Part shown: positions 7,178 through 62,470 of the stretch, in pieces
Numbering within the stretch: position 1 is the first letter of the stretch
Layout of the letters: each line of letters begins with the position of its first letter
Virus record (IMG/VR): IMGVR_UViG_3300000366_000001
Coordinates: 1-64,000 of that record
Source: a virus
Direction: 5' to 3' (one strand)
DNA length: 64,000 bases
The notes under the pieces: generated by a model
Database searches by the model: none
Told to the model about the DNA's origin: nothing
Seen by the model: the letters and a program-made list of their open reading frames with translations, nothing else
Made by a program: the position numbers and the translations under genes

Positions 7178-7654
7178 TCACTGATCAAACAAGACAGGGA
7201 ATGAAGTTTGTGTAAACTTATCCTTTGGAAAAGAATCATTAAACAGCGTCTCAAAAGTCATGTCAAATGAAACTGACTGAGCATCCCAATTAGCATTAGA
7301 TAACTTAAACACATAAGGCCTTGCTCTTTCTGTGTATTGTGTTCCTGTGCTAGCTTCCTGCATAACCTGATAAACAGTGCATTTAATATCAGAATAACCT
7401 CGTGTCAAGTTTAAAAACTCGTTATTTACATCAGCAATAACCAATTTTGCTACTTGCGCTTCCCCAGCCAATTCTTTCGGTAAAGCAAAAGTAAATTGTG
7501 TCCTGTTAAAAACATCTCCGTTATAGGCAACATCCTTTGCGTTGTTAACAATTCTAAATACTTCTGTACCGGCCTCAATCTTAAGAAGGGTAAAGAAATA
7601 AGAATCAACATTTAAAGAAAAAAGCCTTTCCCTTATTGCAGCTGGCATAGCCAT
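7178..7654 (-). CDS. distal tail protein, DUF1833-like
   Basis: 158 aa. Sits between the NlpC/P60 gene and the gpJ-like gene. The N-terminus (AIRERLFSLNVDSYFFTLLKIE...VFRIVNN) resembles DUF1833 phage proteins. Confidence 0.55.
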   Translation of the reverse strand: MAMPAAIRERLFSLNVDSYFFTLLKIEAGTEVFRIVNNAKDVAYNGDVFNRTQFTFALPKELAGEAQVAKLVIADVNNEFLNLTRGYSDIKCTVYQVMQEASTGTQYTERARPYVFKLSNANWDAQSVSFDMTFETLFNDSFPKDKFTQTSFPVLFDQ

Positions 7655-7668
7655 TATTTATTGCTCCT

Positions 7669-8052
7669 TTAGTATTTAAAAAAACCAAGTATATTGCCTG
7701 AATATTCATTGTCTCTAATGCTTGAAACAACAGGGCTGCTATTTTTTATCATGTGAATAAAGCGCCTTGAGTCAATCATTACACCTATATGCCTAGAGGA
7801 ATACTCAGTCTTTAGTAAAACCAAGCAATACTTCTCAGGCTTATCAACCTGCTTAAATAAAGGCTTGCCCTTGCTTAGATTAACTGCTATTGAATTTTTA
7901 TCGTTAACATCATAATCAAATGAAGGAAGTCTTTTATTTAACTCTTTTTCATAAACATAAGATGCAAAATCATAACAATCATATTCTTTGTAATCAAGTC
8001 CAAGGTATTCCTCTGTGTTCATATTATTTATACTCTGATCAAGGCTGAACAA
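7669..8052 (-). CDS. NlpC/P60-family tail protein (gpK-like)
   Basis: Has a catalytic Cys context (YDCYDFASYVY) and His (RHIGVMI...FIHM). The track start is TTG at 8052; the first ATG is at 8022. Confidence 0.7.
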   Translation of the reverse strand: MFSLDQSINNMNTEEYLGLDYKEYDCYDFASYVYEKELNKRLPSFDYDVNDKNSIAVNLSKGKPLFKQVDKPEKYCLVLLKTEYSSRHIGVMIDSRRFIHMIKNSSPVVSSIRDNEYSGNILGFFKY

Positions 8053-8407
8053 TAAAATAAACTGATAAAGTTAAATAACGACCACCAAAAGAGCCAATTG
8101 AATAAGGTGGCGATTGTTCAGGATCAAACTTAACAAGCAACGTATTCAATTCATCCAGCGGGTCAGGGAATTCAAACTCCTGAGTACCTGAAATAATAGC
8201 GACATTAAAGAATGTTTTAAATGTTTGCAGTTGTGTAGCAGTCATCCTAAACGACCCGCTAATAATACGCCCTTCATACTGGCTTCTGGGTCGTGTTTGA
8301 GGCTCACCTACATCATAATCAGCGGTAATAATATCAGGATTGCCCGATTCTCGATAGCTGTCTTGTAAAAACTTTTGAGGCAATGAAAAAGGCCATATAG
8401 CAGCCAT
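8039..8407 (-). CDS. minor tail protein (gpM position)
   Basis: 122 aa; lies immediately downstream of the tape measure gene; ATG verified. Confidence 0.55.
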   Translation of the reverse strand: MAAIWPFSLPQKFLQDSYRESGNPDIITADYDVGEPQTRPRSQYEGRIISGSFRMTATQLQTFKTFFNVAIISGTQEFEFPDPLDELNTLLVKFDPEQSPPYSIGSFGGRYLTLSVYFIVQP

Positions 8408-8497: not shown

Positions 8498-11400
8498 TTA
8501 ACCGCCAACAGGTGTAACCCCGAACCTTGAGCGCATGCCCTGATCAGCCCTGCCTGAGCCGATTGCTTGGTTAACCTTGTTGGCAATGACCAAATCAATA
8601 TCCAGAGTATCACCATCTCTTCTACGTCCAGTTTCCTTCATTTGCATTGGCTCGCCAGACGTGTTGGTCAAGTTGACATTGACGTTTAATTCTTGTCCTG
8701 AACCGCCTGAAGAAGCGACACCTAAATCACCAGAAGATGTCCTTTTCAGAGGAAGGATAGCCTCAGGGCCAGCTTCACCCATCAAGCCAGCACCCATAGC
8801 AAAGCGTGTAGGGGTGTTAACTACTGAGTTAGAGTAGCCTGAAAGGCTGGGTAACCCGCCCTTAGCAAATCTCTGAACTTCACCGCCTACAAAGGCGTTA
8901 CCCTTGGCGCTAGGTGTGTCTGCGGTGGTTCCCGATCCACCAAAAGCACTACTGAAGGCATTAGCTAGCGGAGCAGTGACAGCAGCCCTGATTTGTATTC
9001 TAACAAGATCCGCAATAATGGCATTAGCTAAGTCTTTAAAGTTAAGCTTGCCCGTCATAACAAAGTCTGTCAACTGGTTTTCAAGGCCGCTTAACGTATT
9101 AGAAACAACATCAGCAAAGGCGGTTTCAAAATCATAAGCAGACTCAACATAATCATCTAATGCTTGTTTTACCTTGTGAACAGCAGGGACGCCACCCGTT
9201 AACTCTTGCATGTAAGCTCTTGCATCCTCTGCACTAAGATCACCCCTTGACAGGGCATCCATGACCTTTGAAGCTTCCCTTTGCAGCTCTCGCATAGGAT
9301 CTAGGCTATCTCTAGTTGCAGTCAACCAGTTTTGGTAGTCTGATTCTGCTTGCTTTACTGATTCGCTTTGATCCTTTATTTTATTTGTTGTTGTTACTAG
9401 ACTTTGAGCAAATTTAGCTTGTTCAGCGGTTCCACCGGCCATTAAAACATTGTATGCGGCAAGCTCACCAGAAGTCATGTTGAGTGTTCTAGCTTCTTCT
9501 ACAAGTCTATCTATTATCTTTTGTACTTTTTCAGAATTTTCTTCTGTTGAATCTGTGTTTTTGTCCTTAGATTCGCTATTTTTATCTTGCTCACCAGTCA
9601 GCTCTGCCAGTTTTCGCCGCAACTTTTCGACATTATCCGATTGTTCGCCAGTTGCTGATATCTGTTCGTTGATCGCGTCGATGGATCGCTGAAAACCTGC
9701 GACTGACTGCTCGTTGCCCTGCTGTTCAGCAATAGACATCTGCTCAAACATAACACGGCGCTGATCAAGCAACGAGTTAACATCGCTTGCAGCTTCAGCA
9801 GCGCGAATCTGGCCTTTCAGTGATTCAATTCGGTTTTGTTTTTGAGCATCGGTAAGCTTGCCTATCGTTCCATAAAGCTCTTCAGCTTGATTGCGCACAC
9901 TTTCAAGCTGATCAGCAGTTTCTTGAGCTTGTCTTCTGAATTGTATAAATGCAAGAGTAGCAGCCCCACCGATAGCAGTAGCAAGCAAGCCTACAGGGTT
10001 AGCCCTCATTGCAGCATTAAGCAATAATTGAGCCTTAGTAGCCAAAGCAGCCCTTGCCGTATAAAGGGTGATTGCGGTGGTCAATGTTCCGTAAGCGACA
10101 GCGGTAGAGGCGACAAAAGTAGCCGTTGTTTTCAGGATATCAGCAACGCTCTGAAGGCTATTTAGCTGATCTATAGTGTAATCATTAGACTCTGCGAACT
10201 CTTGCCCTAATCCATTCCATACGCTTAAAAGTCCAGCCGTATTAGTGATTAGGCTTTGCAGTGACGCTCCTAAACCAGACGAATCATTGAGACTAAGTAT
10301 GGTCTCCCCTACAGCACTATTCAGAGTCCTGAAAGAGTTGGCTAGACCTGCACTCATTGTCTTTGCCATTTTATCGGCAGCGCCCTCTGAATCCTGAAGC
10401 TCACTCGTTAATTCTGACATTCTGTCAGAGCCAGATGCAAGGATGTTAAAGGCAGGAGCCACCTCAGAGCCAAAAATCTTAAACGCATCAGCAGTGTCTA
10501 TATTGGCATCGCGTAACGTCTGCAATACATTTGTTAAGCCGTTTGTCTTAACATCAAGCTGATCTAATGTTAATCCGTAACTAGCAAGCCTCTTAGTGGC
10601 TTCTGGCGTGGCATTGGATAGCTGCCTAATCATACCAACCATTGCTCTACCGGCACGGCTAGACTGTATGCCAGAATCACCGAGTACGCCAATAGCTGCT
10701 GACAACTCTTCAATTCTTACGCCAGCCGACTGAGCCACAGGCGCGGCATAAGATAGAGCTTCACCCATTTGCTCTATATTCGTGTTGCTCCTTGATGCAG
10801 TTGCAGCCATTACATCATTAAGCTTGTTAAGCTCACTGACTTCCATTTGCATGCCGCCTAACGCATTCGACGCAATGTCAGCAGCACGCGCAAGGTCAAT
10901 GCCTCCAGCAGTAGCAAGAGAAAGAATCCCTGGAGTTGACTCAATAACCTCATTAACATCAAAGCCAGCTTGAGCTAGAAACGCCTGAGCATCGGCTGTT
11001 TGCTGTGCGCTAAAAATGGTTGTAGCACCCAAAGACCTTGACTGATCTTCAAGCGATTTCATTTGTGCCTCTGTAGCGCCAGAAATAGCTCTTAGTTTAT
11101 TTAGGCTTGTTTCAAACTGAGCTACTTGCTGTATTGAATCTCTTAATCCTACACCGATACCAATGGCCGCAAAAGATGCTGCTAGCGTCCTAACAACATC
11201 TCTAACATTGACAAGCCTATTGCCCATTTTTTTAGCGTTCTGGCTAACTTCATCGAACCTTGTTTCAGCACTTCTTAAAGCTGCCGAATGTTGATTTTGG
11301 CTAATTGTTCCTTTATCTAAAGCCTGATTAAGCTTTCTTAGTGTCGTATCGTATTTTAATTTAGCCCGTTCAGACTTGCTAGTCGTGCCAAGGCTTTGCA

Positions 11401-26083: not shown

Positions 26084-26110
26084 GATAAAAAAAGGGCTTT
26101 AATAGCCCTT
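26084..26110 (-). terminator. rho-independent terminator
   Basis: Stem AAGGGCT/AGCCCTT followed by T7 on the minus strand. Confidence 0.7.
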
Positions 26111-27933: not shown

Positions 27934-28196
27934 TTATTTTTTGCATTTTTTGAATTAATTATTTGTGTGTGGGCGGTAAGTAGTAGGTAGTGGGTGTGAA
28001 CCCTACCTCTGTAAGAGGTACTAGTATATTTAATAAAAAAATATATTTAATAATAATATACACCTACGGTGTACCCTCTAACACCTCTACAGACACCGCC
28101 ATTGCTGACTTTCATCTAATACCTGACTAAAATGGTAGGTTTCTATTTTTTGCTATTAATTGACTTTTTTAGGGTATTTATTGACATTTTTTGACT
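27934..28196 (-). repeat. intergenic cassette, copy 2 of 4
   Basis: Same layout as copy 1. Its core CTAGTATATTTAATAAAAAAATATATTTAATAATAATATA is nearly identical to copy 3. TTGAC boxes lie at 28160, 28181 and 28191. Confidence 0.85.
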
Positions 28197-34818: not shown

Positions 34819-35568
34819 CTAACCGCCTAACTTTCCTTCCCCGTACCATGATGCGATAATCTCGTTAATCCTGTCCAATATATCCATTCTTTTAAACCAC
34901 AAATGACAATTGCCATTTTTAAACATCTTGATCTTTAAATATTCGTTTTCATATTCTTTGCTGTTTCTTGCCTGCCTTAACTCATAAGAAAAACCATGCT
35001 CTTTAAATTCTTTGCCGTCTAATGTTTTAATAATGCGGTCAAGGTCGTTTATTTCTCCTTCATTATAATGGTTAAGCATCAAGTCACCAAAGGAGCAAAC
35101 AAACCAATTAGTTAATATAATTTTCTTGCTTACTTTAAATGCGTCATTTGTTTTGTATTTTCCTTCTAATCTTTTAAACAGATTGACTAATCCTCGATTA
35201 AAAAAGTGTTCTGCATTGTGATAGCTGCTAATTAAAGTCTCCCTGATGTTATCCATTGTAAACTCAGGTGGATTCTTTTCAAGGCTCATATCAAAATCAT
35301 TACGGGCTACTTTATCCATGTATTTATTGAATCCGGTTTTATTGATTGCGTGTCTCCAGAACCGGCGGTCTAATTCTTTCCTGAATTCATCAGGACATTT
35401 CAAGGAGCTGTTAAAAGCAAGAGGGTATAAATAATTACCCATCTGATTACAAACATCCTGAGACTTTTGCATAGTCTTGTAGGCGTGTATATGCAAGTCT
35501 AAAGCTTTATCTCTTGCTTCTACTATGTCTTCAAGCGTCTTAATGTGTGCTAGTGCTGTGGATTGCAT
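34819..35568 (-). CDS. DUF4942-like protein (tentative)
   Basis: 249 aa. The C-terminal pattern KMFKNGNCHLWFKRMDILDRIN resembles the DUF4942 signature as I recall it. Confidence 0.5.
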   Translation of the reverse strand: MQSTALAHIKTLEDIVEARDKALDLHIHAYKTMQKSQDVCNQMGNYLYPLAFNSSLKCPDEFRKELDRRFWRHAINKTGFNKYMDKVARNDFDMSLEKNPPEFTMDNIRETLISSYHNAEHFFNRGLVNLFKRLEGKYKTNDAFKVSKKIILTNWFVCSFGDLMLNHYNEGEINDLDRIIKTLDGKEFKEHGFSYELRQARNSKEYENEYLKIKMFKNGNCHLWFKRMDILDRINEIIASWYGEGKLGG

Positions 35569-36426: not shown

Positions 36427-36683
36427 CTATTTTTTGAATTATTTTCTGCGGGTGAAGGGTAAGTAGGTAACTGGTAGTGGTTGCTAGTGCTCGAGATAGT
36501 CTCTCTAGTATATTTAATATAAAAAATAGTTTTTAATATAATAATAGAGTAGTACAGACACCCATAACACCCCTGTAAACCAGTACTGACAGGGCTTTCA
36601 ATACATTAGCAGTTGCTAAATTAGCAAATGATTTATTGACTTTTTAGCAGGGTCAAAAAATGCTTTTTTTGGAATTATTGACC
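36427..36683 (-). repeat. intergenic cassette, copy 3 of 4
   Basis: Same layout as copies 1 and 2. Palindrome TTAGCAGTTGCTAA lies at 36606-36619. The string GCATTTTTTGACCCTG...AAGTCAAT is shared with copy 4. Confidence 0.85.
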
Positions 36684-37803: not shown

Positions 37804-38256
37804 TTATTGTATATCTAAAAGCCGTTTAACTTGACTCAAGTATAATCGAAATTCTTTAACGTTGTCAACCTTTTTTCCTTTGAAATGATACGGCTTTTTA
37901 CGCTTCCTGAATCGCTCACAGATACGCGCAAGGTTATGCCGATAATCTTTAACGGTAGGCTGGTAGTCGTTTAAGAAGTGGGCTGGTACATTTTCGGTAG
38001 TGCTATGATAAAGCTGGATTTTAATTCCTCTGCTGATGCACTCTTCCCGTGCCTGTTCAAACTGCCGGTTAGTCCATAGTAGGTGTTTACGACAAAACAG
38101 CACATGGCCTGTTTTAAGCTGGTAGCTTGACGGTGCCTTGCTGGCATTATCCTTTCCCTGTAGCAGTTCATTTTGTGGCCTTAATCCTTCCCTGTGAGCT
38201 GCTATCAGGTGTTCGTCTAGCAGTAGTTTTGCTGGTATGCAGTTGATTCTAGTCAT
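37804..38256 (-). CDS. denV: pyrimidine-dimer DNA glycosylase (T4 endonuclease V family)
   Basis: The N-terminus MTRIN...LLDEHLIAAHREGLR parallels T4 DenV ([26 protein letters not shown]). Confidence 0.75.
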   Translation of the reverse strand: MTRINCIPAKLLLDEHLIAAHREGLRPQNELLQGKDNASKAPSSYQLKTGHVLFCRKHLLWTNRQFEQAREECISRGIKIQLYHSTTENVPAHFLNDYQPTVKDYRHNLARICERFRKRKKPYHFKGKKVDNVKEFRLYLSQVKRLLDIQ

Positions 38257-46289: not shown

Positions 46290-46513
46290 TTGATTATTTT
46301 CCTTTTGTTAAAGCCATTAAAAAACCTTCGCCATATATAACCCCTCGCCACTGATACCACCGTAAAAGTTAATGTAATAGCTATATTGTCATGTGCGCTT
46401 ACTTGGATCTCCCATAACGGGACTATAACATAAGACCAAAGCAATAGCGATACTAAAAACCCTGACCCTACGTTAAGAATCTGTTCAATTAGACTCTGTT
46501 TTCGGCTTTGCAT
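46286..46513 (-). CDS. small membrane protein
   Basis: 75 aa with two hydrophobic helices. Confidence 0.55.
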   Translation of the reverse strand: MQSRKQSLIEQILNVGSGFLVSLLLWSYVIVPLWEIQVSAHDNIAITLTFTVVSVARGYIWRRFFNGFNKRKIIK

Positions 46514-47286
46514 TGTTCTACCATTCTCTGACCAAAAAACACAACCTTTTCAGAGTCATAAAGTCCGTCTGTATATCCTTTTTTAGTGCCGCCTAGCCTG
46601 GCCGCACACTTCCGCCAGATTGCTTTAAATGCGTTACCCTCTGCATAATTCATATGCAAGGCTTCAATGATGTCATTACATTCAGCTTCGTAAGCTTCTG
46701 GTAATGTTGTCGGTTTGTTAATCTTTACCTTGTAGTAACTAACTGATCCGCCTGTGTATTCTTCTTCTGGATGATCCTTAAAATCAACATCAGCAGGATT
46801 ATACCAGGGCTTTTGCGGAATAGGGTATTTTTCGTCCGACTTAACACCATGTTCGACAGCATCAAGCCACTGATCTTCTTTATCCCAAAAATACTCCTTT
46901 CCATCTTCAATCTTAAGCCAATTACAGATAGTAAATTGACCACATTCAAAGTCAACATGAGTTGCGTCTTCAGGTGGCTCACCTGAATTATGGATCATAC
47001 CAGCAAAATGCTCTTGATATTTTTTATCAAGAGTAGTGAGTTTTGGCTGGTCTTTCATTGGGTGGCATTCGATTGAACTCTTGCCCTTTGATATAACGTA
47101 CCAAAACCCATGGCCTTGCGGGGTTTCTTCCCAGACAAAACATCCGTAAAGGTTAGTGTCATCATCAAGCGCGATCCCACTATCAATAACTCTCTGCAAT
47201 TCGTAAACCGCAGCATTATGGCCGATCACATTGGCAACCCGCTCAAAACAAGCTAGGTCGATAGGATGTAGCTCTTCTTTTTTCAT
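46489..47286 (-). CDS. hypothetical protein with DUF3310-like C-terminal domain
   Basis: ATG at 47286 after GGAGG. The C-terminal pattern is GGSVSYYKV...AEGNAFKAIWRKCAARLGG. Confidence 0.55.
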   Translation of the reverse strand: MKKEELHPIDLACFERVANVIGHNAAVYELQRVIDSGIALDDDTNLYGCFVWEETPQGHGFWYVISKGKSSIECHPMKDQPKLTTLDKKYQEHFAGMIHNSGEPPEDATHVDFECGQFTICNWLKIEDGKEYFWDKEDQWLDAVEHGVKSDEKYPIPQKPWYNPADVDFKDHPEEEYTGGSVSYYKVKINKPTTLPEAYEAECNDIIEALHMNYAEGNAFKAIWRKCAARLGGTKKGYTDGLYDSEKVVFFGQRMVEQCKAENRV

Positions 47287-47300
47287 CTGAAAACCTCCAG

Positions 47301-47570
47301 TCAATCATAAACTTTAATGTTTCTGCCAGACCTTACCGCATCCTGCTCTTTCTCATGCTCTGCCCTGCAACTCCAATCCTCCTCAGCTTCACAGTATGCC
47401 GATTCGTAATCTGGTAAAGCCTCACTGCAATATAGGCACTTGTTAACTATAGCGTGTTTCTGCATGGATTGCAAGCGTTCTTTCTCTCTTTCTTTTGCCA
47501 GGTTGAAAGAAAAAAGCGACCTTTCCAGATGCCGCTCATTTTCTTTTTGTGCAATATCTATTTCGTCCAT
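47301..47570 (-). CDS. TraR/DksA-family zinc-finger protein
   Basis: N-terminal DEIDIAQKENERHLE followed by a C4 cluster (CLYCSE...C..C). Confidence 0.65.
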   Translation of the reverse strand: MDEIDIAQKENERHLERSLFSFNLAKEREKERLQSMQKHAIVNKCLYCSEALPDYESAYCEAEEDWSCRAEHEKEQDAVRSGRNIKVYD

Positions 47571-47620
47571 TTTATTAAAGCCTTATTGTTAATTAAATAA
47601 GGCTATTTTAGCATGGCTGA

Positions 47621-47938
47621 TTAAAATAAATTTAATTGATTTTTGTTTTGGTGCATTGCTTCTATTTGATCAACCATACACTGGTTCCAATTACTAGACT
47701 CAAAGCCCAATGATTTTAGATTATGGTCGTTTTTAAGTATAGCCAAAGCTATCCTTTTATAAGTTGGAACCCTATTTGAGTTAACCAGTTGATCTGGAAC
47801 CTCCTCTCCATCAGGAATACCACTCGAATAACATTTGTCCATCCACATCTTTTCGTAAGCCTTTATTTTCGATGTAATGCTTCTCCCATAATCTAATTGC
47901 TGAATCTGCCTCTTTGTTTGCCAAAAATCGCTGCTCAT
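47621..47938 (-). CDS. small protein sharing the KR[IF]A..ILKNDH motif with the IbrA-like C-terminus
   Basis: Has VPTYKRIALAILKNDHNLKSLGF, compared with TSWKRFAVTILKNDHTCKYMGL in 49205..50527. It overlaps the upstream ORF by 128 nt; an alternative ATG lies at 47848. Confidence 0.5.
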   Translation of the reverse strand: MSSDFWQTKRQIQQLDYGRSITSKIKAYEKMWMDKCYSSGIPDGEEVPDQLVNSNRVPTYKRIALAILKNDHNLKSLGFESSNWNQCMVDQIEAMHQNKNQLNLF

Positions 47939-48242
47939 CTGTAAGATACCCCCACGCTTTTCTAGTAATATCTTGAGGGCAGCTTAAAGCCATTGCACAT
48001 GCTGCATGACCAATCCATGCCCTTCTATTTATATTTTCGTCTGTTAGTGCGTTCTCACAACTAAAGATCCACTCTTCAGTTACGCTTTTCATGTATTTTC
48101 CGTATAAATAATGATCTCCTGTGAACTCAATAGCTTTTTCAAGCATTTCCTTTTTATTATTGCAGGTAGACCACATCCCTTGGCCTACCTCCTCCCACTT
48201 CCAGAACGGATGAGCAATATGCTCAAATTTCCTCTTTACCAT
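47811..48242 (-). CDS. hypothetical protein
   Basis: 143 aa; ATG verified. It overlaps the ParB-like gene end by 20 nt. Confidence 0.55.
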   Translation of the reverse strand: MVKRKFEHIAHPFWKWEEVGQGMWSTCNNKKEMLEKAIEFTGDHYLYGKYMKSVTEEWIFSCENALTDENINRRAWIGHAACAMALSCPQDITRKAWGYLTDEQRFLANKEADSAIRLWEKHYIENKGLRKDVDGQMLFEWYS

Positions 48243-48798
48243 AAATATCTTCTTCTACAACCTCCCAGCTATCTGAAAAATCCTTGTTTTGAAATAAAGC
48301 TGCTACACCTGTAATCTGTTTTAACCTAAGAAGCTCATCCTTACTCATACCTATATGGTCACATATCCACCTGTCCCCCTTACCCATCTCAACAAGCTCT
48401 GCTACAATCGTGCTCATTAGCTCTATACTATGAGTGCCCCTAGCCCTGTTATGACGAATTGTTGAGGCCATCCTGTTATCCATAGTCTTGTTTAAGACTA
48501 CAATAGGAAGCATTCCTTGCTCCCTTTGATAAACCCTCTTACTTGTCTTCAGTGTTAAATAACGGTGAAAGCCATCAATGACAACATATTGATCTTTATC
48601 TTCATCATAAACAGTTACAACAGGTTGAGTATAACCATCCTCCCATATTGATGTCTCAAGCAGCTCCATTTCTGGCGGCGCAACGCTATTAGGATTATAG
48701 TCGTTAGCCGTAACTTTTTCCACTGGAACCCGTAGAACATTGTAAACAGGAGAAACAAAACCTGACTCAAAATCTTTATTATCGTGGTGGTTTTCCAT
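48223..48798 (-). CDS. ParB-like nuclease domain protein (IbrB-like)
   Basis: Has NPNSVAPPEMELLETSI...IDGFHRY...RHNRARGTH; ATG at 48798 after GAGG. Confidence 0.7.
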   Translation of the reverse strand: MENHHDNKDFESGFVSPVYNVLRVPVEKVTANDYNPNSVAPPEMELLETSIWEDGYTQPVVTVYDEDKDQYVVIDGFHRYLTLKTSKRVYQREQGMLPIVVLNKTMDNRMASTIRHNRARGTHSIELMSTIVAELVEMGKGDRWICDHIGMSKDELLRLKQITGVAALFQNKDFSDSWEVVEEDIYGKEEI

Positions 48799-48815
48799 GC
48801 AAAGCCTCATCTCAA

Positions 48816-49205
48816 TTATTTTACACAAAACACTTCGTAACTTCCATCCTCATCATGGACTTCATTTCCAGTCAGAGGCGGGTTAAAAACACAAAGCAAA
48901 ACAGTCTCATCAATTGCCTCAAAAAAGTGCGGGTCATTCTCATCTAAAATGTAAGTTGTATCTGGAGTAATAATAAACTCCTCTCCGGTTTTAGCGTTTG
49001 TAAGCACCGCTTTACCCTTTACACAGTAACAGCTTTCAAGATGATTCTTGTAGTGCTGAAAAACCCTTCCAGCATCTGGACTTATCACGGTTTTTGTGAA
49101 GGTGTAACCCATTTTATCTTCCAGCAAAATTATGCGGTTACTTACGCCAGCATGAAATTCAACTTTCCTGCTTTCTGGCAATTGATTGGTTTTGATTACT
49201 TTCAT
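48816..49205 (-). CDS. ectoine-synthase-like cupin (EctC family)
   Basis: HYKNHLESCYCVKGKAVL...PDTTYILDENDPHFF...LLCVFNPPLTGNEVHDEDGSY aligns by eye with Halomonas EctC (HYKHHFEAVYCIEGEGEV...PGDIYILDQHDEHLL...[21 protein letters not shown]). Confidence 0.7.
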   Translation of the reverse strand: MKVIKTNQLPESRKVEFHAGVSNRIILLEDKMGYTFTKTVISPDAGRVFQHYKNHLESCYCVKGKAVLTNAKTGEEFIITPDTTYILDENDPHFFEAIDETVLLCVFNPPLTGNEVHDEDGSYEVFCVK

Positions 49206-50527
49206 TATTTATCACCCTTCTTGTTTAGATTATTGTATTTTTTCTGTATCTGCTTCTGTCTTGCAGCCTGCTCTTTAGTTGGAGCAAGACCCATATACTT
49301 ACAAGTATGATCGTTCTTTAAAATTGTCACTGCAAACCTTTTCCAGCTAGTTACATCTGAATTGTTGCAAGACAGCATATCCAAGTGATCTGGTGGAGTT
49401 TTTATTTTAACTCTACGTAAATCTTTTCTACCGTGACTGGTATATCCGTTCACAGTGAATTTTACACCTGCACTGTTTAGTTCGTCAATAGTTTTTTCTG
49501 GCAATCCGCGCCCCACTCTACCCCAATATCTTATAGATTGAATGAAGCGCCCCTTAAAATTTTCTGCGGTTTCCTCCGGCAAGGTATCGAGCAAAAACTT
49601 AACAAAGCTTTTCCATGTATGACCTTTTGGAAGACTTATATTTCTGTAATTAAGCTGCTTACCATAGGTAACCATAAAATTAGCCCCGTTAACTCTAGCG
49701 CAAAGCCTTGCCCAAATATGAGGATCTATAACCCTATAAAGGTTTAGGCTGGCCTTTGCCTCACTCATAAATGGTGACGCTACCCGCATAGATCCAACTG
49801 GTACACCAGCCTTGTAAAAAACATCATACAGCTTGTTGTAGTCCCACTCAAACTTAGCATTAGCAGCCCATACATCATCAGTGCGCCAATCATAAATAGG
49901 GTAACAATTAAAAACATTTTTAGTGTTTTTCTTTGTCCAGGCGTAACCATCAAGCATCTCCTTTCTATCGTTCATAATGGCTCTAAATCGGTTGAGGCTT
50001 TCTTGCGTCCTAATGCCAATAAGGTTGGCTGTTTTTTTTCCTTCGGCATACCACTCTGCAAACATATCCCAAAAGTGATCGTACTGCATGTTTTCTACAA
50101 ATTTATCCCCGAAAGGATGATTTTCAAAATTTACAACATAGTCATCTTCCGGCATTGGCCTTATCCATCTATCTTTATCACCCTCTCCCCAGCACTGCCA
50201 ATCTTGATCGTAAGCAGAAACGGTGCATGGTAATGTTATTGGCATGCAGCACCAATATACATCAAGATAATCCGAGTTATCTTTCAATATTCTGTGCATA
50301 AATTCAAGGCTTAAGTCATAATTTGCCTCGTTATCCATTATCTGAATACCAAGCTTTTTCTTTACATTGTTCTTTTTCATATAGTCAAGGCAAAGATTAA
50401 GCATTATCCCAGAGTCCTTGCCGCCTGAAAAAGAAAGATAGACCTTTTCAAAGTTATTAAAAATGTAATCTATGCGCTCCATAGATGCATCATATACGTT
50501 TTTACCTCTGTTGTATTGCCTGCGCAT
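49205..50527 (-). CDS. PAPS-reductase-fold protein with DUF3440-like C-terminus (IbrA-like)
   Basis: N-terminal PP-loop context YLSFSGGKDSG; 440 aa; ATG at 50527 after AAGGAG; TAATG junction with the cupin gene. Confidence 0.75.
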   Translation of the reverse strand: MRRQYNRGKNVYDASMERIDYIFNNFEKVYLSFSGGKDSGIMLNLCLDYMKKNNVKKKLGIQIMDNEANYDLSLEFMHRILKDNSDYLDVYWCCMPITLPCTVSAYDQDWQCWGEGDKDRWIRPMPEDDYVVNFENHPFGDKFVENMQYDHFWDMFAEWYAEGKKTANLIGIRTQESLNRFRAIMNDRKEMLDGYAWTKKNTKNVFNCYPIYDWRTDDVWAANAKFEWDYNKLYDVFYKAGVPVGSMRVASPFMSEAKASLNLYRVIDPHIWARLCARVNGANFMVTYGKQLNYRNISLPKGHTWKSFVKFLLDTLPEETAENFKGRFIQSIRYWGRVGRGLPEKTIDELNSAGVKFTVNGYTSHGRKDLRRVKIKTPPDHLDMLSCNNSDVTSWKRFAVTILKNDHTCKYMGLAPTKEQAARQKQIQKKYNNLNKKGDK

Positions 50528-50582
50528 CAACTCAACTCCTTAGCCAATTCAATTAACCTGTTCATTTTACCCGATCCGATTC

Positions 50583-50616
50583 CAAAAAAAATACCCTCGT
50601 TAACTTCTGAGGGTAT
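50583..50616 (-). terminator. rho-independent terminator
   Basis: Stem ATACCCTC/GAGGGTAT followed by T8 on the minus strand. Confidence 0.7.
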
Positions 50617-50639
50617 TCTATTATCACTAATTCCAAAAG

Positions 50640-51800
50640 TCAACACATTTCCGGCGTAATCCGCAACCTTCCCACTTCACCGTATTCAGTATGGTAGGTA
50701 ATGACCTGTGCTGACCTTTGGCTAATCCAACCGCCATGCGCTGCATAAGCGTCTGTGGCGGCCAAAGTCTGGTGTTGCTCAACTATCATCAGATTGTTTT
50801 CTTTAACGTCTTTAGAGTGCCTATGACCTAGATGGGCATAGCTGTACTTTGTACGCCCGAACATATCCCTAAATTTAGCTGCAAAAACATCAGCCACACT
50901 TCCAACGCCTTTACGGTGTCCATGATGAAAGAATAGGCTGTTATTACCAAACTCATAAGCGTAATAAACGTCAGGGCTTGTTTCAACTGTTACCCTGTCG
51001 TTTAAGCTGTAGAAGTGCGAAAACAGCTCTCTAAGCCACGCAGATGAAGCCATATCATGGTTTCCCTGGGCATGAACGATATGCACGTATTCGTGCTTTT
51101 CTAGCAGCATATCAACGACTTTAGTGAGCACCTTGATAGCTACCCTGACTACGTTTTGAAATCGCGTATCTGCATCAAGAATATGCTTGTGTTGTGGTGT
51201 TACCGCTTCTAATCCATCATAATGAAGCAAGTCTGCAATATTTGCCAAGATAGCCGTTTCTGAGTCGGGCGATTGCTTAATAGCTTGTTTAAACCAGTTG
51301 ACAAGTAAGGATTCAGCTTTCTCAATATCCCAATCCTCATTACCTGTTTCTTCACCCCATGCGTACATGCCAAGGTGGTAATCTGTAATTACATAAAGAT
51401 TCAGTAAGTCTTGATTGCTTGATTCCTTTGATTGGACTGGATAGCTTGCTTTCGGCTCTACCGACTCTTTCAGGGCTTCTATAGCGGCTTCCATAACCTT
51501 AAACTGGTCTTCTGCTTTCTTGTCAGTCTTAACCCATTGCAGTCTTGGCTTTCCCAAGTCATCATAAAGTGTGCTTGTTCCTTTTACAAAATGGGTATCA
51601 GGAGCTACCTTAGTCATACCCTTGTCAGGTGCATAACCTTGCAGGGCAGCCCTATCCTTTACGCGGTTAACCTGACGCTTCAGTGTTGTTCTATCCTTAC
51701 CTAAAAGCCTTGCAGCGGCATTAAGCGTACCTTTTTCAAGGTAGGCTTTAACTGATTCCGTCTCATGGTCTGTCCTGCAAAACTCAATTAATTTATCCAT
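50640..51800 (-). CDS. HTH domain fused to a calcineurin-like metallophosphoesterase
   Basis: N-terminal LNAAARLLGKDRTTLKRQVNR. Phosphoesterase motifs DYHLG, GNHD and GHRH. Confidence 0.65.
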   Translation of the reverse strand: MDKLIEFCRTDHETESVKAYLEKGTLNAAARLLGKDRTTLKRQVNRVKDRAALQGYAPDKGMTKVAPDTHFVKGTSTLYDDLGKPRLQWVKTDKKAEDQFKVMEAAIEALKESVEPKASYPVQSKESSNQDLLNLYVITDYHLGMYAWGEETGNEDWDIEKAESLLVNWFKQAIKQSPDSETAILANIADLLHYDGLEAVTPQHKHILDADTRFQNVVRVAIKVLTKVVDMLLEKHEYVHIVHAQGNHDMASSAWLRELFSHFYSLNDRVTVETSPDVYYAYEFGNNSLFFHHGHRKGVGSVADVFAAKFRDMFGRTKYSYAHLGHRHSKDVKENNLMIVEQHQTLAATDAYAAHGGWISQRSAQVITYHTEYGEVGRLRITPEMC

Positions 51801-51978
51801 TCTCTTTAACCTTTTGCTCTAAATAAAGAATATACTCTAGCATCTTTTCATGGTGACTGGATAATCTAAAGCATTCTGAATCTCTGTTTTTTCTGTAATC
51901 TTCTAGCAATTTACTATCAAGTCTTTCACCCTGGCAAAATCCTTTTCGCCATTCGTTTCTTTGATTAACTAGGTTCAT
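51793..51978 (-). CDS. hypothetical protein
   Basis: 61 aa; overlaps both neighbours by a few nt. Confidence 0.5.
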   Translation of the reverse strand: MNLVNQRNEWRKGFCQGERLDSKLLEDYRKNRDSECFRLSSHHEKMLEYILYLEQKVKENG

Positions 51979-52433
51979 TTTTCCAGATTATCTTCAACCA
52001 TTTTCATGGCAAAGGTATCAAATACTTTAACTTCGCCACCTGTGCATGAATCTCGTGTCATAGCGTACTCTACAGCCTCCTTTGCATTCATTCCAAAGTC
52101 AATAGCTGCCATAGCAAAGGGCGCTCCTGATCCAATCGAATAGCTGTTTAAATGATCTATGCTGTTTTTGTAAACCCCGCCTTCTTCACTCTGAGAAAGA
52201 ATGAATACACCTTCACTCTCTGCAATGATGATATTTGCCTCTAATAGATATTCGTGCATAGCTTGGTCTGAAATTGAAATAAGTTTATCAATATCGCAAG
52301 GGATGCCAGCACCAAAATAGTAGGCGTTATTGGAAACAACAAATTTATCCACATTTTCAGAAAGGATGATATTTCCGCTTGATTCTCTTGAGTCACAAGC
52401 AATATAGCGGCCATCAAATGCGATTGTAGTCAT
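51975..52433 (-). CDS. proteasome-type Ntn hydrolase (HslV-like)
   Basis: MTTIAFDGRYIACDSRESSGNII... parallels the HslV N-terminus (TTIVSVRRNGHVVIAGDGQ), with Thr directly after Met. Confidence 0.65.
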   Translation of the reverse strand: MTTIAFDGRYIACDSRESSGNIILSENVDKFVVSNNAYYFGAGIPCDIDKLISISDQAMHEYLLEANIIIAESEGVFILSQSEEGGVYKNSIDHLNSYSIGSGAPFAMAAIDFGMNAKEAVEYAMTRDSCTGGEVKVFDTFAMKMVEDNLEK

Positions 52434-52447
52434 TTAGTTATTCCTGG

Positions 52448-52975
52448 TTATTGGTAGGTCAGTGCGTAAGTCAATCTAGGTTCAGCTATACCAGTACCAT
52501 AGCATATATTTTTACCTTTGAAAACCCGTGTACCGTAACTTCCAACCTCAAAACCATTAATCTCTAGATCTAATCCTGACTCGGTTTTTACGGTTGTCAG
52601 CTTTTCTGTAAACTGTCTAAAGAATCCTTCTGCATCTTTTTTTACAGACTTATATTCATATGAACCGATTACAAACAATTCTATCTTCAAGAATATTCTG
52701 AAATGATACTCATCTAAAACAGGTTCATCACGATAGCACGGGGTTATCGCTTGATACCTGCCATCGCCAATATCATTATTAATGATACGCTGAAAAAATG
52801 ACTGCTCAGCACTAGCCACATAACAGAGACCATTATGTTTCAAATCTTCCCTTGATTCAGGTTTAGTAAAGTCGCTTACCATTTCATCCACAAGCATAGG
52901 CACTGATACAGGCTCGTAGCCAAGTAACTGATACCATTGCATGGCATTAAGAATTTTTAAAGAGTCAACTATCAT
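52448..52975 (-). CDS. minimal class-II aminoacyl-tRNA-synthetase-like catalytic core
   Basis: 175 aa. Motif-2-like CYRDEPVLDEYHFRIFLKIELF (compare SerRS CFRSEAGS...HQFDKVEMV). Motif-3-like GTGIAEPRLTYAL. Confidence 0.55.
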   Translation of the reverse strand: MIVDSLKILNAMQWYQLLGYEPVSVPMLVDEMVSDFTKPESREDLKHNGLCYVASAEQSFFQRIINNDIGDGRYQAITPCYRDEPVLDEYHFRIFLKIELFVIGSYEYKSVKKDAEGFFRQFTEKLTTVKTESGLDLEINGFEVGSYGTRVFKGKNICYGTGIAEPRLTYALTYQ

Positions 52976-53223
52976 TTTCTATACCCCGATTTAAATGCTA
53001 GTTTTGTAGCATCTGACATCGCTTTAAGGTCATTCATTTTCATCCCGAACTTAAATTCAATATACCCCTCTATTGCCCCATACATATCTGACAGCTCTAC
53101 CAACTCCATAATAAGGTTGCCTTGCTCTTGAGACTCTAAAACCTCATCAGCCTCTTCCATTACTTTGGAGAAATGACCGTAGACACCTTTTTTAATAACT
53201 CTATTATGATAACTCATAAACAT
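52972..53223 (-). CDS. MazG-like NTP pyrophosphohydrolase
   Basis: 83 aa; has EEADEVLE...ELVELSD acidic helices. Confidence 0.55.
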   Translation of the reverse strand: MFMSYHNRVIKKGVYGHFSKVMEEADEVLESQEQGNLIMELVELSDMYGAIEGYIEFKFGMKMNDLKAMSDATKLAFKSGYRK

Positions 53224-57677: not shown

Positions 57678-58250
57678 TTATTCAACCCCAAAGTTTTCAA
57701 TCAAATTAAAAATAAACCCGCTATGATCCTTGCAGAATTTATTAACGCTTTCTGCATAAGCAATACCATCCTTATCAGGCTTTTTATTCTGTTTTAGTTT
57801 CAACACGACAGAATCAAAATACCCATCTTTATATTCTTCAATGCTGATCCCGATAGCGCCTACAAAAATCTTTTTATCGGTATAAACAATAGGGTAATCA
57901 GGAATTACAAAGCAGCTTTTAACTTGCTTTCCATTACCTTTAGCAAAGGCAAAGTTGCAGTTATCAATATTTGTTTCTGTAAAATCGCATCCAAAAAGAT
58001 CAGCATGGACAAAGCTAGCTTTATCAAGATTCGATCCTGATAAGTTAGCGTTAATCAGCTTTGCCTTGTTAAAGGTGGCGTCTGCTAAATCGCATCCTGA
58101 TAAATTAGCGCCCTGCAAATCGCTTGACTCAAAAAGAGGATTCTTTAAATCAAAACCTCTAAAGTCAAAACTATTTAAGGTTAGCTCCATCAAGTCAGTA
58201 AATCCAATCTTTTCGTTATTACTGATAGCCTTTTCTATTAATTCTTTCAT
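57678..58250 (-). CDS. pentapeptide-repeat protein
   Basis: Consecutive A(D/N)LXX units: SDLQGANLSGCDLADATFNKAKLINANLSGSNLDKASFVHADLFGCDF. Confidence 0.8.
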   Translation of the reverse strand: MKELIEKAISNNEKIGFTDLMELTLNSFDFRGFDLKNPLFESSDLQGANLSGCDLADATFNKAKLINANLSGSNLDKASFVHADLFGCDFTETNIDNCNFAFAKGNGKQVKSCFVIPDYPIVYTDKKIFVGAIGISIEEYKDGYFDSVVLKLKQNKKPDKDGIAYAESVNKFCKDHSGFIFNLIENFGVE

Positions 58251-60160: not shown

Positions 60161-60237
60161 TGGTACGCTAGGCAGGACTTGAACCCGCAACCTAGTGGGT
60201 AGAAACCACTTGCTCTATCCAGTTGAGCTACTAGCGT
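60161..60237 (-). tRNA. tRNA-Arg (anticodon UCU)
   Basis: Hand-folded cloverleaf. Acceptor ACGCTAG/CTAGCGT, D stem GCTC/GAGC, anticodon stem AGTGG/CCACT with loop TTTCTAC, T arm GCGGG-TTCAAGT-CCTGC, CCA encoded. Confidence 0.85.
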
Positions 60238-60239
60238 AT

Positions 60240-60311
60240 TGGAAGGCAGGACGGGACTCGAACCCGTATTATCTGGGCTTGCAATCCAGTACTTAACCAG
60301 TTCAGCCACCT
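60240..60311 (-). tRNA. tRNA-Cys (anticodon GCA), short D arm
   Basis: T arm ACGGG-TTCGAGT-CCCGT, anticodon loop TTGCAAG, acceptor with two G.U pairs and one mismatch, 3-bp D stem, CCA encoded. Confidence 0.65.
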
Positions 60312-60552
60312 ACCCATAAAAACAAGGAGAGCGCCCCTTGCAGTGCCCTCCAAGGCCATAACCTGACGGCATAGGTCGGCTAAAAAACCAACTATAGCAC
60401 CAGCCTGATAAACATGCTATAGCGACTCTCGCTATTTGAGCATCACCCTACAAGGATTTGTTGGGGATAGGCTTGCGGGGTAATCTATGACTTACTGTTA
60501 ATGCAATGACTGTATTTTTTTTGCCAATGGTTCGCAGTAGGTCTTATTTTAT

Positions 60553-60628
60553 TGGTCGGAATTAAAGGACTCGAGCCTTTGACCCCCTGATCCCAAATCA
60601 GGTGCTCTACCAACTGAGCTAAATTCCG
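60553..60628 (-). tRNA. tRNA-Pro (anticodon UGG)
   Basis: Acceptor CGGAATT/AATTCCG, D stem GCTC/GAGC, anticodon stem CCTGA/TCAGG with loop TTTGGGA, T stem AAAGG/CCTTT, CCA encoded. Confidence 0.85.
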
Positions 60629-62212: not shown

Positions 62213-62470
62213 GTCAAAAATTCCGTTTAATGCATTTTTTGACCCTGTGGATAAGTCAATTATTCTTTTGCTTAATTAGTGATTGCTAATATGGCCTAAG
62301 CCACACAGATCAAGGCTTACAGTTAAAACAAGTGTTTGATAGACTCCCTGTATATTATATATAAAAGAATTTTTTAATTATTACATATAGTAGTACCTTC
62401 ACACAGTGGTAGAGACACCACCCTCTACCTCTTACCCACCCACACCTAATAAATTTAATCCAAAAAATAG
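62213..62470 (+). repeat. intergenic cassette, copy 4 of 4 (inverted relative to copies 1-3)
   Basis: The reverse complement matches the other copies: CTATTTTTTGGATT...GGTGTGGGTGGGTAAGAGGTAGAGGGTGGTGTCT, A/T core, near-palindrome TTAGTGATTGCTAA (62276-62289), and GTCAA boxes at 62213, 62240 and 62255. Confidence 0.85.
62336..62364 (+). promoter_or_regulatory. candidate promoter TTGATA-16/17-TATATA inside cassette copy 4
   Basis: -35 at 62336-62341; the A/T-rich -10 candidates make the exact register ambiguous. Confidence 0.35.

Follow-up and report, generated by a model that had tools for sequence, protein, structure and literature searches.

A conserved five-gene phage cassette joins IbrA/IbrB to an EctC-like cupin and is a candidate nucleic acid modification system

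INTRODUCTION

What does the IbrA/IbrB protein pair do when a phage carries it together with an ectoine-synthase-like cupin? The question is raised by a stretch of viral DNA of 64,000 nucleotides (nt) (positions 1 to 64,000 of IMG/VR record IMGVR_UViG_3300000366_000001; hereafter, the window), the minus strand of which carries, at 47621-50527, five translationally coupled open reading frames (ORFs) in the order IbrA-cupin-ParB-g4-g5, with abutting or overlapping ends. An initial annotation, made from the sequence alone, had described this locus as a candidate DNA- or nucleotide-modification module. It listed a PP-loop protein of the PAPS-reductase fold of 440 amino acids (aa) with a DUF3440-like tail, a 129-aa ectoine-synthase-like cupin, a ParB-like protein, a 143-aa protein of unknown function (g4), and a small protein repeating the DUF3440-like motif (g5), and it recognized the IbrA/IbrB arrangement in them. 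All of the ORFs, their coordinates, and their abutting or overlapping ends were verified, and the presence of PHROG families phrog_2302 and phrog_2159 in one five-gene unit bore out the IbrA/IbrB framing.

IbrA/IbrB are already known by name, and the cupin-ParB fusion has been known from automatic annotation since 2014. In the literature searched, we did not find the five-gene unit, its breadth among phages, the remodeled EctC pocket, the relation between g4 and g5, the paralogy of the IbrA tail, or the dual-coding overlap that are reported here. The comparisons confirmed the five genes as one conserved unit, which appears to be horizontally mobile, and we discuss which chemistry and which substrate this unit might serve.

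RESULTS

The five genes recur as one unit across viral loci

A megablast search with positions 47000-51000 of the window against 50,697 phage records returned no match; therefore, the locus has no close sequenced relative in that set. At the protein level (tblastn), the same arrangement was found in Pseudoalteromonas phage XCL1123 and in Mycobacterium phages Gaia and Nebkiss. Searches of IMG/VR seeded with the cupin and with g4 yielded 104 loci, 93 of which had the genes for IbrA, cupin, ParB, and g4 in the same order on a single strand and within a span of 6 kb. This recurrence of gene order in 93 viral loci is far beyond chance, and the adjacency of IbrA and IbrB was kept in all loci surveyed. 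The GC content of the cassette ranged from 35 to 56% across loci, and identity to the window proteins from 67 to 76% for IbrA and from 70 to 84% for ParB; for the mycobacteriophage, the values were 68% and 75%. That phages of distant hosts are so alike in these proteins speaks for a universal substrate and not for a host-specific protein.

The initial annotation knew of no cupin between IbrA and IbrB in described IbrAB loci. In about 100 viral contigs such a cupin turned out to be the usual case, in most of them as a true fusion with ParB, and GenBank records have carried the label "ectoine synthase/ParB multidomain protein" since 2014 (gp104 of Gaia and Nebkiss; XCL1123 also). Cupin and ParB formed one uninterrupted ORF in 85 of 100 loci. 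In the fused Gaia gp104, PF06339 matched residues 1-126 and PF02195 residues 136-200, while XCL1123 encodes the two proteins by separate genes. The window IbrA has more than 7,000 homologues at E <= 1e-10, and the IbrAB loci of streptococcal and E. coli phages consist of the two core genes alone.

Some loci depart from the common form. Locus L105 (ENA ERZ28654253 scaffold_74) is a 77.9-kb contig syntenic with the window, with the same ThyX/PhoH/clamp/RNR neighborhood. Its cassette holds two added genes (7421-8287 and 8725-9264), and among the fetched loci both are present in L105 and L106 only. The first, between IbrA and the cupin, encodes an EctD-like PhyH dioxygenase (TIGR02408, 5.3e-65; 219 bits against a cut-off of 336), and the second, placed between the cupin and ParB, a protein of 179 aa that is weakly similar to FtsJ-like methyltransferases. 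A cupin-less variant was seen in L097, where the order ParB-g4-IbrA is followed, at 3666-4358, by a gene for a DUF5131 protein (PF07505, 5.2e-14) with a CX3CX2C radical-SAM-like motif. Gaia alone has a 124-aa protein without a Pfam match, gp105 (L002, 7185-7559), between the cupin-ParB fusion and g4; its N terminus, YRITYPNGKIYVG, looks GIY-YIG-like by eye, without support from Pfam.

IbrA is predicted to be an adenylating PP-loop protein

Both domains first assigned to IbrA scored above their Pfam cut-offs, namely PF01507 PAPS_reduct (37.3 bits, cut-off 22.5, 3.5e-9) and PF11922 DUF3440 (207.6 bits, cut-off 25, 1.6e-61; profile positions 1-180 of 182), and phrog_2302 matched over the full length (1.7e-112). 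Conservation was assessed in a set of 81 sequences. The PP-loop SGGKDS was invariant (78/78 aligned sequences), a cysteine cluster CC-x6-C-x10-C (C93/C94/C101/C112) was conserved inside the cupin-type subfamily, and the C-terminal end carried a W-KR-x6-L-KNDH-x-CK motif. The AF2 model reached a pLDDT of 70.6 and was good for the N-domain only. In Foldseek searches, residues ~1-240 matched FMN adenylyltransferase (FMNAT), CysH, CysD, NcsA, TtuA, and TilS at E values from 5e-7 to 1e-3, with the best values (~5e-7) for CysH, CysD, and FMNAT, and the DUF3440 region gave no match. On the basis of sequence and model, the N-domain would be a PP-loop adenine-nucleotide alpha-hydrolase (AANH), that is, an adenylating fold.

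Identity with the CysH PAPS/APS reductase was rejected: IbrA scored 20.4 bits for TIGR00434 (cut-off 165) and 18.9 for NF002537 (cut-off 154), and its sequence contains neither ECG[LIV]H, the C-terminal motif with the catalytic cysteine of CysH, nor CxxC. In the defence library PADLOC, IbrA gave weak DndC matches only (residues ~160-237, 1.6e-7). These were the sole matches, and no known defence or anti-defence family was found there for the cupin, ParB, g4, or g5. Judged by curated cut-offs, IbrA is classed as neither CysH nor DndC.

The cupin keeps the EctC iron triad in a remodeled pocket

The assignment of the second protein as an ectoine-synthase-like cupin was upheld by PF06339 Ectoine_synth (130.3 bits, cut-off 27, 6.4e-38); the NCBIfam model NF009806 was barely passed (129.4 bits, cut-off 128). 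We aligned the cupin to the Paenibacillus lautus EctC structures 5ONM, 5ONN, and 5ONO, counted residues over 78 distinct phage cupins, and took the roles of EctC residues, including the iron triad Glu-57/Tyr-84/His-92, from the literature (PMC6344544). The cupin residues E57, Y85, and H93 align to this triad and are invariant (78/78). The equivalents of Ser-23, Arg-25, Thr-40, Tyr-52, Cys-104, and Phe-106 and the C-terminal lid VFNPPLTGNEVHDEDG are likewise invariant or nearly so. At the position of EctC Trp-21, however, 76 of the 78 cupins have Gly (Gly20), with no Trp within two positions on either side, and at that of Asn-38, 74 have Thr (Thr37). In EctC itself, Trp-21 is reported to be present without exception in the 437 proteins from ect clusters and to be kept in 145 orphans as well, where it is sometimes shifted by two residues (PMC6344544). 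Four residues, H51, H55, C59, and C61, are new invariants of the phage cupins.

Bacterial EctC proteins from representative genomes were 35-46% identical to the cupin, mostly kept the Trp, and never adjoined IbrA/IbrB in a search that reaches close relatives only. No gene like ectA or ectB, the usual suppliers of N-gamma-acetyl-diaminobutyrate for EctC, was found in the cassette or among the ~35 window ORFs scanned, a set that does not take in all small ORFs elsewhere. Since Trp-21 and Asn-38 are lost, the cupin is probably not an ectoine synthase; its residues are those of what is probably an active metalloenzyme of the EctC fold with a remodeled pocket. The EctD-like gene in the L105 cassette suggests ectoine-like ring chemistry.

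IbrB resembles the DGxHR branch of the ParB/Srx fold

The ParB-like domain was supported by phrog_2159 (7.5e-78), although Pfam PF02195 ParB_N remained below its gathering score (22.6 against 26.3, 1.1e-4); the curated partition-ParB profile TIGR00180 was not reached either (17.7 against 58.45). The next-best PHROG was phrog_498, annotated as a DNA methyltransferase and matched in its N-terminal region (1.8e-10), and the matches after phrog_2159 in general were families annotated as DNA methyltransferases or ParB-like partition proteins. Among 73 sequences, the motifs NDYNPNSVAPP, DGFHR, and RMASTIRHNRARGxH were invariant. In alignments to Noc (7OL9) and ParB (4UMK), the Box I QPR and Box II GERR, which hold the ParB residues for CTP binding and hydrolysis (PMC13229309), are replaced in IbrB by NPN and DGFHR. 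IbrB is therefore closer in likeness to the DGxHR (Srx/DndB) branch than to the CTPase clamps. It also shows weak similarity to SbnI, a ParB-fold serine kinase. The ParB fold binds CTP, ATP, or GTP and in phages is often fused to DNA methyltransferases (PMC12704722). The C-terminal segment of IbrB is conserved and helix-turn-helix (HTH)-like, and it is almost identical in Gaia and in the window phage.

g5 repeats the IbrA C terminus and shares 43 codons with g4

As first described, g4 has no family of known function: it matched nothing in Pfam, NCBIfam, PHROG, or PADLOC. We found 555 word-indexed homologues and 755 representative clusters, almost all of them stand-alone proteins of 90-200 aa, and the invariant residues include W16, E17, E18, S61-C62-E63-N64, and W76-x-G78-H79. 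The AF2 model of g4 had a pLDDT of 88.9. Foldseek searches with it in PDB and BFVD gave no significant match except the XCL1123 orthologue, and no PDB profile matched. Sequence and model together predict g4 to be an all-alpha protein of an orphan family. The idea that g4 is the lost N-terminal half of a split DUF3440 was discarded, as hhalign against the IbrA alignments found nothing (probability 0.4%).

g5 matched the last ~35 positions of DUF3440 (PF11922, 3e-7), and its residues 22-103 were colinear with the last ~80 residues of short-type IbrA (score 109, against 33 +/- 5 for shuffles), in line with the DUF3440-like repeat seen initially. This alignment therefore identifies g5 as a free-standing copy of the IbrA C-terminal subdomain. 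Three longer members of the g4 family (P0364, P0392, and P0407) are g4-g5 fusions, and P0364 matches DUF3440.

The 105-aa form of g5 aligned from residue 1 in 99 of 104 loci (tblastn), a stop lies just upstream of the ATG at which its frame opens, and its N terminus, MSxxxWQTxKQ, is conserved. Because of this comparative evidence, we retained the start first read, ATG 47938. An internal start at ATG 47848, which would leave 75 aa and a minimal overlap and which corresponds to the gene calls in L105 and L121, was ruled out by the alignments of the 105-aa form. The overlap of g4 and g5 measured 112-130 nt in 72 of 80 distinct pairs, with an identical frame offset in 79 and an ATG start of g5 in 77. 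Majority-residue fractions in the overlap were 0.73 for g4 (residues 101-143) and 0.72 for g5 (residues 1-43); each frame was equally conserved within the overlap and beyond it. These comparisons indicate a long-lived dual-coding stretch of 43 codons. Gene callers shorten g5 to 75-77 aa in relatives, and it is unannotated in XCL1123; the stretch would be a clean example of long-term overprinting that gene callers miss.

Junctions, boundaries, and neighborhood of the cassette

The features of the cassette are listed in Table 1. IbrA and the cupin meet at the sequence TAATG, in which the stop of the former and the start of the latter have one base in common. The ParB gene has further in-frame starts at 48810 and 48828, its start lies 5-17 nt past the cupin stop, and a GAGG read from the sequence precedes ATG 48798 by 6 nt. 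Upstream of IbrA, the hairpin consists of an 11-bp stem followed by U8 (RNA fold of -13.5 kcal/mol, z = -3.2) and marks the 5' boundary of the unit. The hairpin downstream of g5 is a possible 3' boundary, and its role as a terminator is uncertain because its T-run is weak. A sigma-70-like promoter match at 50615-50643 was dismissed, as it overlaps the terminator-like hairpin; promoter-like matches across the region were at chance level (17 against 15.7 expected).

Table 1. Features of the five-gene cassette and its borders, in window coordinates
Feature	Position	Strand	Details
Terminator-like hairpin with U-run	50584-50616	-	Between the exonuclease-like gene 50640-51800 and the cassette
Shine-Dalgarno-like AAGGAG	50536-50541	-	8 nt ahead of the IbrA ATG; read from sequence
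IbrA-type gene	49205-50527	-	440 aa; PP-loop N-domain and C-terminal DUF3440
EctC-family iron cupin gene	48816-49205	-	129 aa
IbrB-type ParB/Srx-fold gene	48223-48798	-	191 aa from ATG 48798
g4 gene	47811-48242	-	143 aa, predicted all-alpha; 20-nt overlap with ParB
g5 gene	47621-47938	-	105 aa; 128-nt overlap with g4, in another frame
Putative dual-coding overlap g4/g5	47811-47938	-	128 nt; last 43 codons of g4 and first 43 codons of g5
Hairpin downstream of g5	47579-47604	-	Between the g5 stop and the next gene (start 47570); -9.7 kcal/mol, z = -2.8

Profile scans found dUTPase, RNR alpha and beta, a ThyX-like protein, a beta clamp, and an SbcD-like exonuclease among the window neighbors; across loci, an SF2 helicase, a primase-like protein, VRR-NUC, and the YqaJ exonuclease recur. 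The neighborhood of dUTPase, RNR, ThyX, and MazG that had been named at first is thereby recovered except for MazG: what was presumably meant, the 83-aa ORF 52972-53223, had no Pfam match at E <= 0.001, and its EExxE...ExxD pattern is seen by eye only.

Directly downstream of the cassette, 47301-47570 encodes an 89-aa Cys-rich protein (CxxC...C...C) without a family match that is 43% identical in L008. The next gene (46489-47304) encodes a 271-aa protein, the C terminus of which matches PHROGs that share a DUF3310-like module, and in L121 and L105, too, the cassette is trailed by this gene pair. At 51975-52975, just upstream of the exonuclease gene that lies ahead of the cassette, an HslV-family peptidase-like protein (phrog_1040, 7e-31) adjoins a fragment-sized, 175-aa protein of a "histidyl tRNA synthetase" family (phrog_4806, 2.6e-49), a pair kept in L105 and L121. 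Adjoining the ThyX-like gene, 57678-58250 encodes a 190-aa pentapeptide-repeat protein (PF00805, 2.4e-27), a candidate anti-restriction or gyrase-protecting factor; such proteins can mimic DNA. The window further encodes a 249-aa DUF4942 protein (34819-35568, 1.2e-45), a T4 endonuclease V-type pyrimidine-dimer DNA glycosylase (37804-38256; PF03013, 1.1e-7), of which L105 has one too, and, at 60161-60628 on the minus strand, three tRNA genes for Arg(TCT), Cys(GCA), and Pro(TGG). An AT-rich motif, CTAGTATATTTAATA(A/T)AAAAA, occurs at 28021-28041, 36505-36525, and 62446-62466 with 81-100% identity, and stem-loop-like repeats lie near its copies at 26086, 28294, and 36769; both may be promoter or terminator elements of the phage.

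DISCUSSION

Our leading, and tentative, reading is that the products of the five genes assemble into one enzyme complex for the covalent modification of nucleic acid, assisted by a ParB-fold protein and driven by adenylation, the likeliest substrate being the phage's own double-stranded DNA (dsDNA) after replication; we hold this reading at somewhat less than an even chance. It is based on the co-inheritance of the genes, the cupin-ParB and g4-g5 fusions, the g5 paralogy, and the invariant catalytic residues, on the similarity to DNA-acting families (AANH fold, DndC matches, and phrog_498), and on the replication and recombination setting (exonuclease, beta clamp, dUTPase, and RNR in the window; helicase, primase-like protein, VRR-NUC, and YqaJ across loci). 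DNA T-dioxygenases need phage ParB homologues as activators on dsDNA (PMC13229309), DpdB is a ParB-like ATPase needed for DpdA (PMC12839542), DndB/DndC pairs a ParB-fold protein with a PP-loop enzyme (PMC10853773), and a vibriophage PAPS-domain::Dam fusion confers anti-Dnd activity (10.1101/2021.05.05.442762).

The folds, the retained catalytic motifs, the gene order, the two fusions, and the paralogy are observed. In the sequence of steps that we infer, IbrB would bind DNA and nucleoside triphosphate (NTP) through its ParB/Srx-fold domain and HTH-like tail and would make the duplex accessible to the enzymes; this step is modeled on three DNA-modification systems with ParB-fold partners, namely, Dnd (DndB), Dpd (DpdB), and the phage T-dioxygenases (their ParB activators). 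The IbrA PP-loop would then spend ATP to adenylate a target oxygen, either a base carbonyl or a backbone phosphate, for replacement by a nucleophile. The cupin, tied to IbrB and in most lineages fused to it, would act on the attached amine or amide by a Lewis-acid dehydrative condensation or its reversal. Finally, g5 may dock g4, its fusion partner in some lineages, on the same partner surface that the tail of IbrA itself uses.

Several points weigh against this reading. The literature searched held no functional study of IbrA/IbrB, with or without the cupin, and no modified base or backbone has been observed for a cassette-carrying phage; the proposal of a DNA- or nucleotide-modification module stands as the best available reading by inference, and none of our analyses shows such a modification. 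The kinship with DndC, SspD, and BrxP noted at first holds at a distance only: identity with DndC/SspD was rejected at 20.9 bits for TIGR03183 against a cut-off of 290.4, and every other named PP-loop family in NCBIfam lay far under its curated cut-off for IbrA. The four-Cys cluster of IbrA is limited to the cupin-type subfamily, C409 alone being common to the streptococcal and E. coli phage proteins, and confidence in the IbrA model is low for DUF3440. The other four proteins matched none of DndA, DndD, DndE, SspA, SspB, or SspC in Pfam, NCBIfam, and PADLOC, so that the cassette appears to be without a cysteine desulfurase and without an equivalent of DndD, DndE, SspB, or SspC. According to the alignment, IbrB is without the canonical ParB residues for CTP binding and hydrolysis, and no convincing repeated parS-like palindromic site was found in the 64-kb window, which is less than the full genome and in which no search aimed at a ParA partner was made. 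The EctC-like cupin and the EctD-like hydroxylase of L105 belong to families known only for free small molecules.

Palindromic sites in the window weigh in the same direction. Mean z was -2.9 for 4-mer palindromes, -2.3 for 6-mer palindromes, and about 0 for nonpalindromes, and 52% of the 6-bp palindromes had z < -2, compared to 3.4% of the nonpalindromic hexamers. CTGCAG occurred once (19 expected), CAGCTG twice (15.6 expected), and GGATCC not at all (8 expected). This avoidance suggests long exposure of the phage DNA to type II restriction enzymes and argues against a blanket anti-restriction modification that shields the DNA from them. The protection from host restriction that had been proposed for the module is thus not favored as a blanket effect.

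The same proteins could instead make a free small molecule or nucleotide derivative, with IbrA adenylating a carboxylate or carbonyl, the ParB/Srx-fold protein acting as a kinase-like NTP user (as sulfiredoxin, SerK, and SbnI do), and the cupin closing or opening an ectoine-like cyclic amidine ring, to which an EctD-like enzyme would add a hydroxyl group in some phages; such a compound could be of use for host takeover or anti-defence. The EctC family does cyclocondense a free N-acetyl-diamino acid, the iron triad and most of the pocket residues are retained in the phage cupin, and the L105 cassette supplies both the EctD-like PhyH dioxygenase and the weakly FtsJ-like protein. The DGFHR of IbrB is nearer the Srx/DndB DGxHR type than the ParB GERR, its weak similarity to SbnI fits, different ParB-fold proteins bind ATP, GTP, or CTP (PMC12704722), and palindrome avoidance is compatible with unmodified DNA. 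We consider this route fairly unlikely in view of the missing EctA/EctB-like genes in the cassette and the scanned window ORFs, the replacement of Trp-21 and Asn-38, the conserved HTH-like tail of IbrB, its PHROG matches to DNA methyltransferase and ParB-like partition families, and the constant position of the cassette amid replication and recombination genes. Ring chemistry could also take place on DNA, in an undescribed amidine-type hypermodification: IbrA would adenylate a base carbonyl as TilS and GMP synthetase do, an amino acid or diamine would be attached, and the ParB-tethered cupin would cyclize it to an ectoine-like ring, with EctD-like hydroxylation in some phages, IbrB as an NTP-gated loader, and g4/g5 as specificity or donor-handling subunits. 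We regard this specific scheme as quite unlikely; if true, it would give the widespread IbrA/IbrB and YbdN/YbdM family its first biochemical function. That the genes are ordinary auxiliary metabolic genes, a CysH-type PAPS reductase for sulfur assimilation and an ectoine synthase for osmoprotection that lie beside a partition-type ParB by chance, would agree with the automatic public names "PAPS reductase" and "L-ectoine synthase" and with the NF009806 score that was just reached. It is contradicted by the motif and cut-off tests, that is, by the absence of the CysH ECGLH motif and the low TIGR00434 score of IbrA, by a cupin that has lost Trp-21 and Asn-38, has no ectA/ectB partner, and is fused to ParB in most lineages, and by the low TIGR00180 score of ParB and the lack of a repeated parS-like site in the window (ParA not having been specifically searched for). 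A gene order fixed in 93 loci is, moreover, incompatible with a chance neighborhood, and we judge this explanation extremely improbable.

The name of the pair points elsewhere, to transcription. IbrAB is said to activate the eib genes of E. coli ECOR-9 genetically (reportedly in work by Sandt et al. in 2002), which is the source of the co-activator name. "Co-activator of prophage gene expression IbrA/IbrB," the SEED/RAST name, serves as a family name in phage records, and the two proteins could accordingly be co-activators of late or prophage genes, with IbrB as a DNA-binding switch of the KorB/ParB kind, the enzymatic domains as ligand sensors only, and no lasting covalent mark. The XCL1123 cassette lies directly upstream of portal and structural genes, and E. 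coli YbdM is a predicted transcription factor (PMC9068703). Mere regulation, however, would leave unexplained why the PP-loop and the iron triad are invariant and why three further proteins are conserved, and an HTH-like region that is nearly identical in a mycobacteriophage and in the window phage, with its 40% GC, is hard to square with phage-specific operators. The window holds no repeated candidate operator, and in both Gaia and the window the cassette sits within a replication/nucleotide-metabolism block and not at an early/late boundary. We therefore think it unlikely that the cassette only regulates; co-activation is nonetheless compatible with a complex that modifies DNA, as a DNA mark could be the means of activation. 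Finally, the complex might modify RNA, namely, host or phage tRNA or rRNA, after the manner of the PP-loop tRNA enzymes TilS, TtuA, NcsA, and TtcA. Foldseek places the IbrA N-domain about as near the tRNA thiolases NcsA and TtuA and TilS as CysH, a universal RNA substrate would also account for the extreme conservation across hosts, and the phage encodes three tRNAs. The Pfam and NCBIfam scans, on the other hand, revealed no THUMP, PUA, or TilS C-terminal RNA-binding domain, the NCBIfam TtcA match reached just E = 0.094, and the ParB partner and the replication-module context point to DNA; RNA as the substrate is very unlikely in our estimation.

The window belongs to a large subfamily in which the IbrA/IbrB pair has become part of a fixed unit of five proteins. 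From the fusions, the paralogy, and the conserved overlap it can be read which of them must work together, and the cassette brings in an enzyme family with understood chemistry (EctC, sometimes with EctD); with these, the mystery pair becomes a hypothesis that is concrete enough to test. Pairs of this kind are very widespread and include YbdN/YbdM of E. coli K-12, and cultured carriers of the cassette exist in Gaia and Nebkiss on Mycobacterium smegmatis mc2 155 and in XCL1123 on Pseudoalteromonas marina. A new DNA chemistry, should one be found, would extend both the short list of routes by which phages hypermodify DNA and the emerging picture in which ParB-fold proteins partner DNA-modifying enzymes.

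Among known systems, the vibriophage PAPS-domain::Dam fusion (Piel et al.) also contains a phage PAPS-reductase-fold domain, and its role in evading DNA-modification-based defence has been shown experimentally. It differs from the cassette in being a 479-aa protein made of PAPS and Dam methylase parts, without DUF3440, ParB, or cupin. DndB/DndC and SspE/SspD resemble the cassette in pairing a ParB/Srx-fold protein of the DGxHR type with a PP-loop ATP pyrophosphatase of the PAPS-reductase fold in which cysteines are conserved, in IbrA those of CC-x6-C-x10-C in the cupin-type subfamily and in DndC/SspD those for a [4Fe-4S] cluster and a cysteine dyad. Unlike these systems, the cassette comes without DndA, DndD, DndE or SspA, SspB, SspC, and IbrA remains at 20.9 bits against the 290-bit cut-off of TIGR03183; the Cys pattern of IbrA appears to differ from that of DndC and is not conserved across IbrA, and DUF3440, the cupin, g4, and g5 have no Dnd counterpart. 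The 5mYOX176/ParB176 and DpdA/DpdB systems likewise place a ParB-fold protein of a phage or mobile genetic element beside an enzyme that modifies duplex DNA and requires the ParB (PMC13229309; PMC12839542). There, the enzyme is a Fe/2OG dioxygenase or a transglycosylase, whereas the partner in the cassette is a PP-loop enzyme, and the ParBs of these systems keep the CTP-binding residues as well as a dimerization domain at the C terminus, whereas IbrB has NPN and DGFHR.

EctC shares with the phage cupin the fold, the E/Y/H iron triad, the C-terminal lid, and Ser-23, Arg-25, Thr-40, Tyr-52, Cys-104, and Phe-106; the phage protein differs by Gly for Trp-21, Thr for Asn-38, the new residues H51, H55, C59, and C61, the fusion to ParB, and the lack of ectA/ectB. 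The same cassette in the same order is found in Gaia (gp103-gp106) and XCL1123 (QGJ84328-QGJ84331), with identities of 68-70% for IbrA, 48-61% for the cupin, 75-82% for ParB, 54-55% for g4, and 42-52% for g5. Gaia differs from the window by its fused cupin-ParB (gp104) and the extra, unrelated gene gp105 ahead of g4, and both records bear automatic names only. With the two-gene IbrA/IbrB pairs (PHROG 2302 and 2159), such as those of Streptococcus phage CHPC877 and Escherichia phage PhiR5_2 and YbdN/YbdM of E. coli, the cassette has both core proteins and their adjacency in common. Window IbrA is 45% identical to that of CHPC877 and 32% to that of PhiR5_2, and window IbrB 59% and 48%; the PP-loop and the C-terminal KNDHxCK are common to window IbrA and the IbrA of the CHPC877/PhiR5_2 type. 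To this shared core, the cassette adds the EctC-like cupin, usually fused to IbrB, together with g4, g5, and the four-Cys cluster of IbrA.

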